DNA from: SAR86 cluster bacterium
GTDB lineage: Bacteria; Pseudomonadota; Gammaproteobacteria; Magnimaribacterales; D2472
DNA length: 40,886 nt
Assembly: GCA_016779505.1 (NCBI GenBank)
Contig: JADHNM010000003.1
Location: forward strand, 1-40,886
Reading direction: 5' to 3'
A model generated the notes under the pieces. The model ran no database searches and was not told the origin of the DNA. It saw only the letters and a list, made by a program, of their open reading frames with translations. Position 1 is the stretch's first letter; each line of letters starts with the position of its first letter. Shown here one piece after another: positions 24,119 to 40,802 of this stretch. The position numbers and the translations under genes are program-made.

Positions 24119-25021
24119 ATGAAAATACAATCTTTAAGTTACCTGCTAATCGAAACAACAGATCTTCAGGAATGGGCTGATTATGCAAAAGATGTCGTTG
24201 GTTTAATGAAAAATGATTCTCTCAGCGATGAGTATAATCTTTATCTTCGTATGGATGAAAAATCTTTCAGATTTCATGTGATGACTGGTGATTCAAAACG
24301 ATATCTTGCTGCCGGTTTATCTTTATCAGACAAATCTGCATTTGAAGATGCAAAAAATGAATTGGAGAAAGCAAACATTCCTTTTGAATATTTAGGTGAT
24401 GAGATAGCAAAATTAAGGTGTGTTGAGGAGTGTATTGGATTAAATGATCCTGCAGGCAACAGACTAGAGCTATCTTATGGGAGCAAGAATTCCTCTGAGC
24501 CTTTTGTCTCAACTCAGAACATCAAAGGGTTTATTACTAAAGGACTTGGTTTTGGCCATGTGGTTTTTGCTGCGCCTGATTTAGAGACTACGCACAGGTT
24601 TTACATAGATGTTTTGGGTTTTGGAGATTCTGATTATATGAATTTTCCAATGGGACCAGCTCCAGATGCACCCGAAGTTAAATTAAACTTTATGCATTGT
24701 GACAACCCAAGACATCACACGGTTGCCTTGTATGAATCCCCAATTCCACCGTCAGGACTTATACATACCATGGTAGAGGTAAACGACATTGATGAAGTTG
24801 GTTATGGGCTTGATAGAGCCATACAAAATAATATTCATATCTCTTCTTCCCTAGGCAGGCACTCTAATGACATGATGGTTTCATTTTATATGCAGACACC
24901 ATCAGGTTTTGATTTGGAATTTGGTTACGATGGATGGCAGGTAGATTGGGATAACTTTGAGACTCAAAAGAGCAAGATTCCAAGTTTTTGGGGTCATACT
25001 TTCTCACCACCAGAAAATTAG
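24119..25021 (+). CDS. hsaC: Type I extradiol ring-cleavage dioxygenase, TesB/HsaC-like
   Basis: Two VOC domains; GFGHVV, HCDNPRHHT, LIHTMVEV, LGRHSND.M.SFY.QTPSGF.LEFG; directly upstream of ipdAB, as tesB is in Comamonas. Confidence 0.82.
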   Translation: MKIQSLSYLLIETTDLQEWADYAKDVVGLMKNDSLSDEYNLYLRMDEKSFRFHVMTGDSKRYLAAGLSLSDKSAFEDAKNELEKANIPFEYLGDEIAKLRCVEECIGLNDPAGNRLELSYGSKNSSEPFVSTQNIKGFITKGLGFGHVVFAAPDLETTHRFYIDVLGFGDSDYMNFPMGPAPDAPEVKLNFMHCDNPRHHTVALYESPIPPSGLIHTMVEVNDIDEVGYGLDRAIQNNIHISSSLGRHSNDMMVSFYMQTPSGFDLEFGYDGWQVDWDNFETQKSKIPSFWGHTFSPPEN

Positions 25022-25023
25022 CA

Positions 25024-25893
25024 ATGAACAAAATAGTTACTTACAAAGACATAATCGATCAGATGTCCGATGGAATGACTATCGGGGTTGGGGGTTGGGG
25101 TGCCCGTAGAAAACCTATGTCTTTAATAAGAGAGATTTGCAAATCAGATTTAAAGGATTTAACTGTTGTTAGTTATGGGGGCCCTGATGTTGGGTTATTG
25201 TGTGCTCATAAAAAAGTTAAAAAATTAATTTTTGGCTTTGTTTCATTGGATATGATCCCACTGGAAGCACACTTTCGCCAAGCTCGTCAAAAAAATGAAA
25301 TTGAAGTTATGGAGCTTGATGAGGGAATGGTGCAATGGGGTCTTCGAGCTGCTGCGATGCATTTACCGTTTTTACCTACTAGGGTGGGCTTGGGAACAGA
25401 TGTTTTAACGCATAATCCAGAATTAAAATTTGTTAGTTCACCATACCCTGATGCTGAAAAACTTGTTGCGATGCCTGCTCTGAATCTTGATGTTGCCTTA
25501 CTTCATGTAAATAAATCAGATGAAAAGGGCAATACTCAGATCGTTGGACCCGATCCATTTTTTGATGAACTCTTTGCAAGAGCTGCTAGTAAAACTTTTG
25601 TTTCAACAGAAGAGGTTGTAACAACAGAAGAGTTAGGAGGTAAAGATGGAGCAATGTTCAATAGGTTTGAAAGAAGCCTAGTTACTGGGGTATTACATTC
25701 ACCCTATGGAGCTCATCCAACTTCGTGCGCACCTAATTATGGTTTTGATATGCAGCATTTAAAAGAGTATTCAGATGCAGCAAAATCTTTTGATGAATAC
25801 AGTTCTAAATATCTTAATAAGACACATGAAGACTATATCGACTCTGTTGGGGGGTCCGAAGTAATTCAAAAAATACCTTTACCGCAATTTTAA
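25024..25893 (+). CDS. ipdA: Steroid ring-cleaving hydrolase subunit IpdA (ScdL1)
   Basis: GGWG.RRKPM, GFVSLD.IPLE.HF, DEGM, LPFLP.R.GLG.D, GAH.TSC.P.YG; start moved to ATG 25024. Confidence 0.9.
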   Translation: MNKIVTYKDIIDQMSDGMTIGVGGWGARRKPMSLIREICKSDLKDLTVVSYGGPDVGLLCAHKKVKKLIFGFVSLDMIPLEAHFRQARQKNEIEVMELDEGMVQWGLRAAAMHLPFLPTRVGLGTDVLTHNPELKFVSSPYPDAEKLVAMPALNLDVALLHVNKSDEKGNTQIVGPDPFFDELFARAASKTFVSTEEVVTTEELGGKDGAMFNRFERSLVTGVLHSPYGAHPTSCAPNYGFDMQHLKEYSDAAKSFDEYSSKYLNKTHEDYIDSVGGSEVIQKIPLPQF

Positions 25894-25894
25894 C

Positions 25895-37994: not shown

Positions 37995-37996
37995 TT

Positions 37997-38920
37997 ATGA
38001 GCAAAGTCAAATGTGCAATTATTGGATCTGGAAATATCGGCACAGATCTGATGTTAAAAATTATTAAAACCTCTCAATCATTATCTTTAAATGGAGTGAT
38101 TGGCATTGACCCTGAGTCTGAAGGTCTAGCAATGGCAAAATCTCATAATATTGCGATTTCATCAACCGGCTTGCAGGGCTTTATGGAAATGGATGAGTAT
38201 CGAGATACTGAAATATTTTTTGATGCAACTTCTGCTGGTGCCCATAAAAATCATCATGATTTAATTATTAATGATGGCAAGCAGATGATAGACCTTACCC
38301 CAGCAGCAATAGGCCCATATTGCGTCCCAGTTGTTAATTTAACGGAACATTTAAAAGAAAAGAATGTAAACATGGTGACCTGCGGAGGCCAAGCTACCAT
38401 CCCAATGGTTGCAGCGGTTAATCAAGTTTCTAGCGTTAAATATGCTGAGATAGTTGCATCTGTTTCTTCAAAGTCTGCTGGACCAGGAACAAGGGCGAAC
38501 ATTGATGAATTTACTCAAACAACTAAGCTAGGGCTTGAAAAAGTTGGAGGGGCAGACAGAGCTAAAGCAATCATAGTGCTTAATCCTGCTGAGCCCCCTT
38601 TATTAATGAGAAATACTGTTTTTACTTTATGTGATCCTGTTGATCAAGAGTTAGTTAAAGATAGCATTGAGGCAATGGTAGACCGTGTTCAGTCTTATGT
38701 ACCTGGCTATAGATTAAAGCAAGAAGTTCAATTTGAAAGATTTGGCTCTAATAATCCATGCCTTATTCCTGGCTATGGTGAGTTTGAGGGACTAAAAGCA
38801 TCGATTTTCTTAGAAGTGGAGGGTGCTGGACACTATTTGCCTACTTATGCAGGGAATCTAGATATTATGACCTCTGCTGCTATGGGAACCGCACAGGAAT
38901 TAATTAAACTTAACTCATGA
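37997..38920 (+). CDS. Acylating aldehyde dehydrogenase (TesF/HsaG/MhpF family)
   Basis: [58 protein letters not shown]. Confidence 0.95.
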
Positions 38921-39933
38921 GTAAGCTTTATATACAAGATGTCACGTTGAGAGATGGTATGCACGCAATAAGACATCAATATGGTTTAGATCATGTAATT
39001 GAGATTGCAAAGGCATTAGATGAAGCTAAAGTTGATGCCATTGAGGTCGCTCATGGAGATGGTTTGTCTGGGTCTTCTTTTAATTATGGTTTTGGAGCTC
39101 ATACAGATAAAGAATGGATTGGAGCAGTTGCTGAGAAATTAAATTATGCAAAACTTACAACTCTTATTTTGCCTGGAATTGCAATTAAAGAAGATCTTAA
39201 GTGGGCATGGGATCTTGGGGTTAGATCGGTCAGAGTTGCAACTCACTGCACCGAGGCAGATGTTTCAAAGCAGCACATAGAGTTTGCAAGAGAATTAGGT
39301 ATGGATACCATTGGTTTTTTGATGATGTCACATATGACCTCACCATCCAACTTAGCAGAACAGGCCAAATTGATGGAGTCCTATGGAGCTGAATGTGTAT
39401 ATGTTGTTGATTCGGGCGGCGCATTGAGCATGGAAGATGTAGCAGATAGATTTAAAGCTTTTAAAGATACCTTGGATTCTTCAACCCAAACAGGCATGCA
39501 TGCGCATCATAATTTATCTTTAGGAGTTGCTAATTCAATTGTTGCTGTTGAAAATGGAGCAAATCGAGTTGATGCAAGTCTTGCGGGTATGGGGGCTGGA
39601 GCAGGAAATGCCCCTCTTGAAGTTTTTATTGCTGCAATTGATAGATTGGGGTGGGAACATGGAACAGATCTCTTTAAATTAATGGATGCTGCTGAAGAGC
39701 TGGTTCGCCCATTGCAGGATAGGCCCGTAAGAGTCGATAGAGAAACATTAACATTGGGTTATGCTGGCGTTTACTCATCCTTCCTCAGGCATGCTGAATC
39801 AGCTGCTGAAACTTATGATCTTGATACAAGAGAAATTCTTGTTGAGCTAGGAAAGAGAAAGATGGTTGGCGGTCAAGAAGATATGATTGTCGATGTAGCC
39901 TTGGATTTATTAAAAAAGAAATCTCAATCATGA
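38917..39933 (+). CDS. 4-hydroxy-2-oxoacid aldolase (TesG/HsaF/MhpE family)
   Basis: [53 protein letters not shown]. Confidence 0.95.
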
Positions 39934-40802
39934 AAATTGGCATGACCCTTCCGGTCATGGAGCCTGATTTATCCAGGCAAGACTTAGAGGATTGGACGTT
40001 GAGAATAGATGCTGGTCCATGGTCGCATATTGCCTTGGGAGAAAGAATTTTATTTCCCAACCCTGAATTCATCTCTACTTTAAGTGCAGTCGCTGCCTGG
40101 ACCAAGCGTGTGGAGATCATTGCAACCATATCTGTTTTGACAATGCATAACCCAATATTGAGCGCTAAACAGTTTGCAACAATTGATATGATCTCAGAGG
40201 GTAGGTTTACCCTTGGTGTAGGGGTTGGGGGTAGAGAAGAAGACTATAATGCTATTGGCTCCACATGGTCTGATAGAAGGTGGGCTACACTTTCTGATCG
40301 TGTTAAAACCATGCAATCAGTTTGGTCAAAGGAATATCATCCTAGTTTAGGGCCAACACCCTTTTCTATGAATGGACCTCAAATATTGGCAGGCGCAGTA
40401 GGTCCTAAGGCCATGGAAATGTCGGCTGATTTTGCAGATGGCTTGGCTGGATTTTCATTTAATGCAGATATTGAAGAAATCAAAGATTCATTTAATCGAG
40501 TGCAAAAAGCATTTGAAGAAAAAAATAAATCTCCTAGGTTGGTCACCAGTTTCTGGTTTGGGCTAGGTAAATCTGCTCGATCAGACATTCAAACCCACCT
40601 TGAAAGGTATTTAAGTTGGATGGGAGATGATCTTGCAAGAGATTTAGCAAAAACAGCAGGTTTTTCAGGTAGTCAAAGTGATTTGAACGATTTTCTCTTA
40701 TTGGTCAAGGCTGCTGGCGCAACAGATGTAATTTTGGTGCCTACATCAAAAAACATTGAACAATTAATCTTGGCAGAAGAGGTGATTGCTGGATTTGGCT
40801 AA
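39930..40802 (+). CDS. LLM class flavin-dependent oxidoreductase
   Basis: [48 protein letters not shown] overlap with the aldolase. Confidence 0.88.

Follow-up and report, generated by a model that had tools for sequence, protein, structure and literature searches.

Most proteobacterial steroid degraders are reported to hold a single catabolic cluster (Bergstrand 2016, in its accessible part). In Comamonas testosteroni CNB-2, this cluster includes tesB (CtCNB1_1275), ipdAB (1276/1277), ipdC (1279), fadE31/32 (1281/1282), fadA6 (1283), fadE33/30 (1287/1288) and ipdF (1289), according to the available parts of Crowe 2017 and of Bergstrand 2016 (Table 1). A unit running from a tesB-like to a scdE-like gene is described as invariant in Pseudomonas and Metapseudomonas, as far as the accessible text of a 2026 preprint goes. 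The actinobacterial counterpart is the KstR2 regulon of Mycobacterium tuberculosis and Rhodococcus jostii RHA1. Steroid catabolism has also been published for SAR86 (PMC4810484, PMC11582366, each in its accessible part): the testosterone/cholate pathway was assigned to all three SAR86 draft genomes (Bergstrand 2016, mBio), and a few genera of one SAR86 family were judged able to degrade the core rings from tesI, hsaA, hsaC, hsaD, fadD3, kshA and kstD (Freel 2024, ISME J). Here we describe an operon of 18 genes on the contig JADHNM010000003.1, whose entire length of 40,886 bp is the window analysed. The operon probably belongs to a SAR86 bacterium and serves to break down the steroid nucleus aerobically along the 9,10-seco pathway, as the first 18 genes of a longer unit. 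What we observe is which genes it holds and in what order, how far they are conserved and distributed, and that they occur in RNA libraries.

Gene content and order of the operon

The window is the complete contig C3 of the source assembly (G000; 62 contigs, 0.95 Mb, 75% complete, 0.27% contamination), which was compared with the genomes G001, G002, G003, G033, G045, G101, G131 and G004 of its order. The listing of open reading frames (ORFs) bears out the 18 co-directional ORFs on the + strand (24119-40802) reported by a first-pass annotation made from the sequence, and the opposite strand of this interval offers no competing long frames (longest ORF, 114 aa). Taking the likeliest start codon of each gene, the spacings at the 17 junctions are 2, 1, 4, 33, -4, -26/-11, 3, 12 and -4 bp for genes 1-10 and 0, 35, 11, 4, 2, 2, -4 and -4 bp for genes 10-18. 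The tight packing described earlier, in which no gap exceeds 35 bp and ATGA overlaps occur, is confirmed: the widest gap lies at 34222->34258, and 4 of the 17 junctions overlap by 4 nt (28640, 32747, 38917 and 39930). The GC content is 36-40% across the operon region and 36.5% genome-wide. Housekeeping genes, including uvrB, purL, alaS, aspartate kinase, pyrC and hflX, fill the first 24 kb of the window, and the operon therefore sits in the core chromosome. The contig ends 84 bp past the last operon stop codon (40803..40886), so the count of 18 genes is set by the assembly break and not by biology.

Gene identities come from NCBIfam, Pfam and PDB sequence searches, combined with positional identity in other ipdA loci. 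Together these agree with the first-pass naming of the genes one by one, and with its assignment of a HIP (C/D-ring) module plus A-ring meta-cleavage in the 9,10-seco pathway. Genes 2 and 3, separated by 1 bp, are IpdAB, a predicted COCHEA-CoA hydrolase. IpdA matches the PDB chains 6CO6_A and 6CON_A at 267 and 249 bits, versus 104 bits for glutaconate CoA-transferase (1POI_A), and IpdB matches 6CON_B and 6CO6_B at 188 and 186 bits, versus 63 bits for 1POI_B. By these margins, the pair is closer to IpdAB than to class I CoA-transferases; clustering with non-steroid CoA-transferases is what the earlier annotation had named as evidence against its own proposal. The SAR86 proteins match the IpdAB structures of both RHA1 and M. 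tuberculosis, with the key Glu kept: 6COJ differs from 6CO6 in a single aligned column, Glu to Ala, and the gene 2 product retains the Glu (ELDEGM), in a column that is invariant in four SAR86 IpdA sequences. We take the residue mutated in 6COJ to be the catalytic Glu105, a name and role that reportedly go back to work by Crowe et al. in 2018.

The genes around ipdAB complete a recognizable HIP module, in that ipdC, ipdF, echA20, fadA6 and a fadE31/32-type pair all adjoin it. Four of them exceed curated cut-offs: gene 10, treated below, and three that resemble the gene in the same position elsewhere, namely gene 4 (PRK08290, 446 bits, cut-off 280; 60-75% identity in Comamonas, Pseudomonas, Paraburkholderia and Sphingobium), gene 6 (PRK07938, 308 bits, cut-off 260; 45-58% in proteobacterial and 40-45% in actinobacterial loci) and gene 9 (PRK07801, 641 bits, cut-off 591; 54-69%, and 61-62% to a Micromonospora thiolase adjoining fadD3). 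Gene 5 matches Pfam NMO at 237 bits and the FabK model at 221 bits, under its cut-off, with 44-56% syntenic identity in Proteobacteria and 39-43% to the gene after ipdAB in actinobacterial loci; IpdC is described as FabK-like in the accessible part of Crowe 2017. The acyl-CoA dehydrogenase (ACAD) pair consists of gene 7 (388 aa; syntenic identity 58-68%) and gene 8 (345 aa; 32-41%), the latter matching the Pfam N- and C-terminal ACAD domains only. An identification of this pair as IpdE1/E2, raised by a 120-bit match of gene 8 to the IpdE2 model (cut-off 450), was rejected because the pair occupies the FadE31/32 position in the named loci compared, and because other Proteobacteria have a separate second pair besides it. 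Gene 10, a short-chain dehydrogenase/reductase (SDR; PRK07831, 384 bits, cut-off 336), is assigned to the IpdF type since its identity to the SDR standing after the second ACAD pair in other Proteobacteria is 48-58%, versus 25-32% to the SDR directly after the thiolase; it is also 52-54% identical to an SDR near ipdC in actinobacterial loci.

To place this arrangement among other loci, we scanned an IpdA alignment against one genome per prokaryote species and took the best 80 of 423 confirmed relatives. One of the 80 is the near-identical contig of G001, and the other 79 were compared by tblastn with the 18 window proteins and with the proteins that lie downstream in relatives. These loci include C. 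suwonensis, Pseudomonas and Micromonospora, alongside the PDB chains, and do not include the genomes of CNB-2, RHA1 and H37Rv. The series of families from HsaC through IpdA, IpdB, crotonase, NMO, crotonase and the two ACADs to the thiolase is found again in Comamonas suwonensis, several Pseudomonas, Metapseudomonas, Paraburkholderia, Undibacterium, Sphingobium, Novosphingobium, Endozoicomonas, Colwellia and others; in the C. suwonensis locus (L126), identities to genes 1-9 are 37-63%. Genes 2-9 are fully contiguous in 16 of the 79 loci, among them those of Comamonas, Pseudomonas, Metapseudomonas, Paraburkholderia, Sphingobium and Colwellia, with many more ending at contig breaks, and loci of the Halieaceae and Spongiibacteraceae type depart from the order only in being without gene 4. 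In families and order, genes 1-9 are thus like tesB-scdL1L2-scdN-scdK-scdY-scdM1M2-scdF (locus tags 1275-1283) of the Comamonas testosteroni cluster CtCNB1_1275-1289. The Comamonas order cited in the first-pass annotation is supported both by the CNB-2 locus tags and by synteny in Comamonas, Pseudomonas, Paraburkholderia, Sphingobium and others.

The differences begin after the thiolase. The other Proteobacteria compared have there a different SDR (25-32% identity), then the second ACAD pair, and only then the IpdF-type SDR, whereas in this SAR86 family those three genes are gone and the IpdF-type SDR abuts the thiolase. It is followed by genes for an EthD-domain protein, an SDR, a cytochrome P450, HsaD/E/G/F and a luciferase-like (LLM) flavin oxidoreductase, and the regulators, located downstream in relatives, are of the Lrp/AsnC type. 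Compared with the KstR2 regulon, homologs of ipdA, ipdB, ipdC, ipdF, echA20, fadA6 and the fadE31/32-type pair are shared, but the SAR86 locus is without a TetR-type KstR2, follows the proteobacterial gene order, and has yielded no ortholog of the FadE30/33-position pair. It does have an EchA13-type crotonase, a type linked to cholate degraders in the accessible part of Crowe 2017.

The first-pass annotation had regarded the operon as separate modules condensed into one unit. For genes 1-9 this view does not survive the comparison, as they are the canonical proteobacterial unit and no special condensation. Meta-cleavage genes and fadD3 are also joined to it co-directionally in other bacteria, for example in two metagenome-assembled genomes (MAGs), L148 (Hellea sp.) and L188 (Pseudomonadales). 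In both, a co-directional run hsaD-hsaE-hsaG-hsaF-hsaC-ipdAB... is comparably compact in another order; 5' of it stands fadD3 in L148 and an Lrp/AsnC pair in L188.

Among the key enzymes of the 9,10-seco pathway used in Bergstrand 2016 are KstD, KshA, HsaA, HsaC, HsaD and HsaE. HsaC, HsaD, HsaE, HsaF and HsaG are all in the operon, with HsaF and HsaG above the curated cut-offs and the others best or near-best matches below them. Gene 1 falls short of both the BphC model, with 280 bits against a threshold of 366, and the HsaC model, with 258 bits against 450. Its best PDB match is 2ZI8 (208.6 bits, versus 167.8 for BphC, 1HAN), which we take to be M. tuberculosis HsaC, and it is 37-46% identical to the dioxygenase directly 5' of ipdA in Comamonas, Pseudomonas and others. 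Gene 14 scores 183 bits against the HsaD model (cut-off 400) and 175 against BphD; sequence alone is equivocal here, and the context favours HsaD. Gene 15 reaches 350 bits against TIGR03220 (cut-off 409) and is 54-62% identical to the hydratase adjoining steroid clusters elsewhere.

The near-equal scores of the dioxygenase and hydrolase against the BphC/BphD and HsaC/HsaD models invite another reading, in which an aromatic (biphenyl- or catechol-type) meta-cleavage pathway lies beside unrelated beta-oxidation genes and the likeness to steroid degradation is superficial. SAR86 genomes are reported to carry many genes for beta-oxidation and for the cleavage of aromatic compounds (Freel 2024, accessible part). 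However, the CoA-transferase-like pair is IpdAB-specific, the nine-gene order is that of steroid degraders, KshA and FadD3 follow in relatives, and the window has no genes for a ring-hydroxylating biphenyl dioxygenase. Largely refuted by IpdAB and synteny, an aromatic pathway strikes us as highly improbable.

Table 1. Features of the window, with coordinates, strand and basis of assignment.
Gene	Feature	Coordinates	Strand	Basis
	Candidate promoter/operator, conserved non-coding block	24006..24095	+	Upstream alignment of four relatives
1	Extradiol dioxygenase, HsaC/TesB type	24119..25021	+	NCBIfam, PDB, synteny
2	IpdA/ScdL1, alpha subunit of predicted COCHEA-CoA ring hydrolase	25024..25893	+	PDB
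3	IpdB/ScdL2, beta subunit	25895..26650	+	PDB; Pfam CoA_trans
4	Crotonase in EchA13/ScdN position	26610..27575, likely start 26655	+	NCBIfam, synteny
5	FMN-dependent NMO/FabK-like reductase, IpdC/ScdK type	27609..28643	+	Pfam, synteny
6	Crotonase, EchA20/ScdY type, D-ring hydrolase	28640..29401	+	NCBIfam, synteny
7	ACAD large subunit, FadE31/ScdM1 position	29376..30542	+	ACAD family matches, synteny
8	ACAD-like small subunit, FadE32/ScdM2 position	30546..31583	+	Pfam, synteny
9	Thiolase, FadA6/ScdF type	31596..32750	+	NCBIfam, synteny
10	SDR, IpdF type	32741..33529, likely start 32747	+	NCBIfam, synteny
11	EthD-domain protein	33530..34222	+	Pfam EthD, E = 4e-9
12	Second SDR	34258..35031	+	Pfam adh_short 165 bits
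13	Cytochrome P450, CYP51/CYP120/CYP136-like group, not CYP125 type	35043..36392	+	Pfam p450 236 bits
14	Meta-cleavage-product hydrolase, HsaD/TesD or BphD type	36397..37206	+	NCBIfam, PDB
15	2-hydroxy-dienoate (2-oxopent-4-enoate-type) hydratase, HsaE/TesE	37209..37994	+	NCBIfam, synteny
16	Acylating acetaldehyde dehydrogenase, HsaG/TesF	37997..38920	+	TIGR03215 442 bits (cut-off 282)
17	4-hydroxy-2-oxoacid aldolase, HsaF/TesG	38917..39933	+	TIGR03217 586 bits (cut-off 286)
18	LLM flavin oxidoreductase	39930..40802	+	Pfam Bac_luciferase 103 bits

Genes inserted in the SAR86 operon

Homologs of the EthD protein, second SDR, P450 and LLM oxidoreductase occur in none of the 79 other ipdA loci (tblastn, E <= 1e-15, 60% coverage), while all four are kept in the genera g1 and g6. 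On this comparison of predicted proteins, they are SAR86-specific additions, with the P450 belonging to the CYP51 clan. The EthD protein is kept in g1, g6 and also in G004, of the sister family; its neighbours in a protein atlas are EthD clusters, which provide a family-level lead only. The best identity of the second SDR in the 79 loci is 27-30%, and none of these matches is an ortholog. The closest PDB matches of the P450 are an unnamed P450, CYP120, CYP51 and CYP170 (136-154 bits), and its nearest atlas cluster is 'P450 136 family', again a family-level lead only. The LLM protein matches TIGR03619 at 104 bits, under the cut-off, and is 57-98% identical in relatives.

One further enzyme gene in the window lies among the housekeeping genes, ~5 kb upstream of the operon: a 531-aa CrtI-family oxidoreductase (17817-19412, - strand), whose closest model is beta-carotene ketolase CrtO (272 bits, far under the cut-off).

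Continuation in relatives and pathway genes elsewhere

The same operon is carried by G001 (on a collinear contig), G002 and G045, with protein identities of 76-99%, by G003 (61-96%) and by G033 (45-87%). In these relatives, the LLM gene is followed co-directionally by genes for a 145-aa Rieske protein and a 281-aa KshA_C protein (PF19298, 195 bits). Next in G001, G002 and G045 come two Lrp/AsnC regulators, FadD3, a 2-hydroxyacid dehydrogenase and a major facilitator superfamily (MFS) transporter, with thrS after the transporter in G002 and G045 and the G001 contig ending inside the dehydrogenase. In G003 and G033, the series runs without regulators and is seen through the dehydrogenase and through FadD3, respectively. 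The FadD3-family ligase is present downstream in all five genomes, and its G002 copy exceeds the curated cut-off (691 bits, cut-off 657). KshA_C and FadD3 are thereby part of the unit in relatives whose proteins are 84-98% identical. The genes from the Rieske protein and KshA through the regulators to FadD3 and onward are not in the G000 assembly, where the best fadD3 match has 29% identity. We infer that the window holds the first 18 genes of a longer operon, of ~21-25 genes in close relatives.

Of the other pathway genes that the first-pass annotation proposed to look for (kstD, kshAB, hsaAB, fadD3 and ipdE1E2), G000 has a KstD-like gene and a KshA-like paralog, and HsaA, FadD3 and the IpdE pair were not found in this assembly. 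The KstD-like gene (C54:10598-12307) has the KstD model as its top match, at 532 bits (cut-off 788). It lies at a contig end (L013:8915-12307, - strand) and is followed in a row by an SDR and two SnoaL/NTF2-fold genes; the row looks like a small steroid A-ring oxidation/isomerisation module apart from the main operon. The KshA paralog, of 331 aa and with Rieske and KshA_C domains (96 bits), is on C39, where amidohydrolase_2, SDR, sulfotransferase and APH-type kinase genes and one gene without assignment adjoin it (L012:296-6857). The KshA_C search in five genomes of the SAR86 order gave at least two such Rieske + KshA_C paralogs per genome, and Rieske oxygenase paralogs show weak similarity (70 and 41 bits) to a methylsterol monooxygenase (4-beta-methylsterol) model. 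G000 has one flavin reductase, on C58.

HsaA homologs scoring 357-395 bits (cut-off 450) are found in G003, G045, G101, G033 and G004. In G045, G101 and G033, where homolog and operon are on one contig, they lie 114-136 kb apart. The G045 homolog lies among SDR, pyruvate dehydrogenase, LLM and other genes, with no steroid context. This 40-kb region of G045 has no counterpart in the G000 assembly, a result that says nothing about the G000 genome itself. For the second ACAD pair, the large subunit of L171 served as query. Its only ortholog among the genomes searched is in G004 (58% identity), between the thiolase and the IpdF-type SDR and adjoining a further ACAD-like frame, and no match reached the IpdE2 cut-off.

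A two-ORF KshA in relatives

In canonical KshA, the Rieske and catalytic domains share one chain, whereas the SAR86 relatives encode them as two ORFs (L024:11341-12639, - strand, in G002; L023:2899-4197 in G001; also in G045, G003 and G033). Both ORFs share one reading frame, with TAA-AAA-TAG between them; the TAG falls inside an AGGAG site, and the ATG of the catalytic ORF comes eight bases after that TAG. The 145-aa Rieske protein aligns with KshA residues 24-139 and keeps the invariant CxH...CxxH motifs. The 281-aa catalytic protein covers residues 25-64 and 120-353 in the alignment; its D..D..H....H iron motif is intact, but it is without the ~55-residue segment (KshA 65-119) that presumably carries the [2Fe-2S] ligands. 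The motifs of the Rieske protein fall within that very segment. From these alignments, the two-ORF form is predicted to work like KshA without being a canonical member.

The short form appears to be widespread in this lineage. A frame of 282-290 aa for KshA_C is present in five of the five SAR86-order genomes searched, and the form is conserved across SAR86 genera and abundant among marine metagenome proteins. Among the best 120 of 392 matches, the top 108 (74-86%, then 59% and 51-53% identity) are mostly 277-290 aa long, the rest being pieces of 156-267 aa, and all 111 matches above 42% identity carry PF19298 only. Two-domain chains of 342-368 aa appear as matches at or below 42% identity, plus two at 50-51% over 80% of the query. 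A class-wide KshA_C survey gave strong matches in 2 of 301 sampled genomes, all in frames of 349-422 aa, too few to judge how rare the split form is. A literature search on split or separate-polypeptide KshA found nothing relevant.

The predicted complex of the Rieske and catalytic proteins scored 0.76, versus 0.08 for the best of three controls. In calibration, 58 of 80 solved complexes attained this mark, as did 2 of 110 mismatched pairs; for this model the counts are approximate, as our own alignments were used. Between model runs, at least 89% of contacts agree, with a partner pLDDT of at least 89. The modelled interface sets the Rieske ligand loops (66-73, 87-90) against the iron-motif region of the catalytic subunit (110-121). 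The score may reflect likeness to solved KshA structures rather than binding.

Candidate control region and RNA libraries

Upstream of gene 1, a block of 90 bp (~24006-24095) is nearly invariant across G000, G001, G045 and G002, whose proteins differ by 2-20%. Within it lie two ATGATAG repeats and, at 24011-24040, a -35/-10-like pair, which comes from a scan that overall gave no more sites than shuffled sequence. Its conservation suggests a candidate control region, which could be an operator for the Lrp/AsnC pair located downstream in relatives. The earlier remark that no regulator is in the window is true of the window, but reflects where the contig ends, given the two Lrp/AsnC genes that follow in relatives.

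Such pairs are not peculiar to SAR86. An Lrp/AsnC pair adjoins fadD3 and ipdAB in 10 of the 79 other ipdA loci, mostly of marine Halieaceae and Spongiibacteraceae. In loci of marine Halieaceae, Spongiibacteraceae and Cellvibrionales (among them L132, L133, L156, L159, L162, L165, L166, L169, L171 and L178), the pair stands directly 5' of ipdAB, with fadD3 before it wherever the contig reaches. With the pair that follows the SAR86 operon, this suggests that marine Gammaproteobacteria share a system other than KstR2 for controlling HIP catabolism.

Sampled words of 24119-34100 are present to at least half in 20 public runs from 15 studies, and 13 of the runs may be source samples. The runs include six RNA libraries from five studies, holding 63-95% of the sampled words. 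Three of the six, and one DNA run that also holds 24119-34100, are labelled 'freshwater metagenome', an unexpected label for a lineage of the open ocean; it may be loosely applied, or the samples may come from estuaries. Contigs of four RNA libraries (four studies) cover 30 of 30 bins of 21000-40886 at 95% identity or more, and bridge gene junctions (for example 28159-29446, 37217-38745, 37141-38483 and 24024-25210). This cover is compatible with transcription of the operon. For the metatranscriptome check proposed earlier, RNA-library contigs thus span the whole operon, which falls short of proof of an 18-gene mRNA.

So, does the operon degrade steroids?

Several observations weigh against the proposal that this operon degrades the steroid nucleus as a single unit. 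Assignments below curated cut-offs include HsaC, HsaD, HsaE, KstD, the small ACAD subunit and, in relatives, HsaA. The gene 14 product is matched slightly better in PDB by BphD (158 bits) than by HsaD (144 bits). KshA, FadD3 and the regulators are assigned to G000 from relatives only. HsaA has no match in G000 (75% complete), G001 or G131 and one of 27 bits in G002, all incomplete genomes. The second ACAD pair (FadE30/33 position; IpdE1/IpdE2, ScdC1C2) was not found in G000, G045, G131 or G033, where the best matches, at 36-39%, are the in-operon ACAD or a paralog; the step after FadD3 is therefore without an assigned enzyme. As for a single transcript, scans gave no signal for promoters (28 promoter-like sites versus 54 expected from shuffled sequence) or terminators (11 versus 12), and were used neither for nor against one transcription unit. 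The RNA-library contigs cover the flanking housekeeping genes equally, cannot show strand, level or a single transcript, and may include DNA carry-over. The operon does not hold the whole 9,10-seco pathway, and HsaAB and the IpdE-type dehydrogenation are without a secure enzyme in G000.

Some of these gaps would also fit another substrate. The same enzymes might degrade a non-steroid polycyclic or alicyclic isoprenoid (a hopanoid, a diterpenoid, carotenoid-derived rings, or 4-/14-methylated algal triterpenoids) that converges on HIP-like bicyclic CoA esters, with the P450, EthD, SDR and LLM proteins as activation steps. The P450 is of the CYP51/CYP120 group and not of the steroid side-chain CYP125 type, and the four inserted genes are foreign to all 79 other ipdA loci. 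HsaA was not found in three of the four closest genomes and is weak in the fourth, the FadE30/33-position pair was not found in four family genomes, and the Rieske paralogs faintly resemble the methylsterol monooxygenase model. Against this, every discriminating comparison points to steroid enzymes: IpdAB, the 2ZI8 match, the KstD-like gene, the 195-bit KshA_C domain and a FadD3 that exceeds its cut-off. Moreover, we know of no non-steroid pathway with IpdAB and EchA20. An isoprenoid substrate of this kind is unlikely, and degradation of the steroid nucleus is the probable reading.

Host and distribution

The host is most likely a member of SAR86 (Magnimaribacterales). Its description in the first-pass annotation as a streamlined marine gammaproteobacterium agrees with genome size, GC content and the traits of the order, which comprises four families with genomes of 0.9-1.8 Mb; G000 has 0.95 Mb at 75% completeness and a GC content of 36.5%. 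SAR86 is described as four families with genomes of ~1.0-1.7 Mb and GC contents of ~34-36% (Freel 2024, Table 1). The assemblies of G000, G001 and G003 have no 16S rRNA. That of the close relative G002 has one, which contains the target of the SAR86-1245 probe with 0 mismatches at ~position 1245. The name and target clade of the probe are given in PMC10108472. A scan of AlaS against named genomes, with best matches of 59-61% in gammaproteobacterial MAGs, was saturated by generic peptide patterns and is uninformative.

Within the order, ipdA is patchily distributed. IpdA (E <= 1e-40) was found in 15 of 151 sampled genomes, G000 included. Leaving G000 aside, the positive genomes are 11 of 40 in family f1, 3 of 40 in f2, 0 of 40 in f3 and 0 of 30 in f4. 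By genus, they amount to seven of eight in the genus of G000, then 3/3, 1/1, 1/1 and 2/3 in four others, and none in the remaining 16, so that 5 of 21 genera are positive. This patchiness matches the few genera reported in Freel 2024. The SAR86 gene sets of Bergstrand 2016 and Freel 2024 concern the same lineage and make the same pathway call. In their accessible parts, the two papers treat gene presence, without the operon layout, split KshA, P450/EthD/LLM insert or missing ACAD pair.

Proposed route and implications

Each catalytic step, like the substrate, is proposed here by homology to the pathways of Comamonas, Rhodococcus and Mycobacterium. A 3-ketosteroid would be desaturated by the KstD-like enzyme encoded elsewhere, and 9-alpha-hydroxylation would fall to KshA, whose genes in relatives lie just past the point where the contig stops. 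Hydroxylation of the A ring, by then aromatised, would follow, with HsaA located elsewhere in some genomes of the same genus. HsaC would cleave the ring and HsaD release a dienoate and HIP, the dienoate yielding pyruvate and an acyl-CoA via HsaE, HsaF and HsaG. HIP would be thioesterified by FadD3, whose gene is known from relatives, and rings D and C opened by IpdF, IpdC, EchA20 and IpdAB. FadA6 and the FadE31/32-type ACAD would finish the chain.

A bolder possibility, which we regard as tentative and rather doubtful as a whole, is that SAR86 has rebuilt the 9,10-seco pathway and not simply inherited it. KshA would be made of two polypeptides, the IpdE1/IpdE2-type pair and the ScdE-type SDR would have been deleted, and an EthD-SDR-P450-LLM module would have been inserted. 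As part of the same joint proposal, the 145-aa Rieske protein would donate electrons in trans to the 281-aa subunit, which is without [2Fe-2S] loops of its own. If true, the inserted module could adapt the pathway to the sterols of marine algae, or replace HsaAB where these are lacking.

Any novelty of a steroid pathway in this lineage is forestalled by the earlier accounts of steroid-ring catabolism in SAR86 (Bergstrand 2016, Freel 2024, in their accessible parts), so that a limiting condition set by the first-pass annotation itself applies, and a literature search combining SAR86 with steroid terms and gene names found no further paper with both. We have not found a description of the operon map, deleted ACAD pair, P450/EthD/LLM insert or split KshA in the accessible parts of these papers, whose supplements may bear on this. 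The window mainly adds an example that is clean and uninterrupted, with the gene map put right, and its interest is modest, the lineage-specific variations being the part worth following. The split KshA, lost IpdE-type pair and P450/EthD/LLM module mark steps where the textbook pathway must differ. SAR86 accounts for a few percent of the bacteria in the surface ocean, according to the accessible part of Freel 2024. A conserved steroid-ring operon that is also present in RNA libraries supports the view, already in print, that this streamlined group does draw carbon from membrane sterols.

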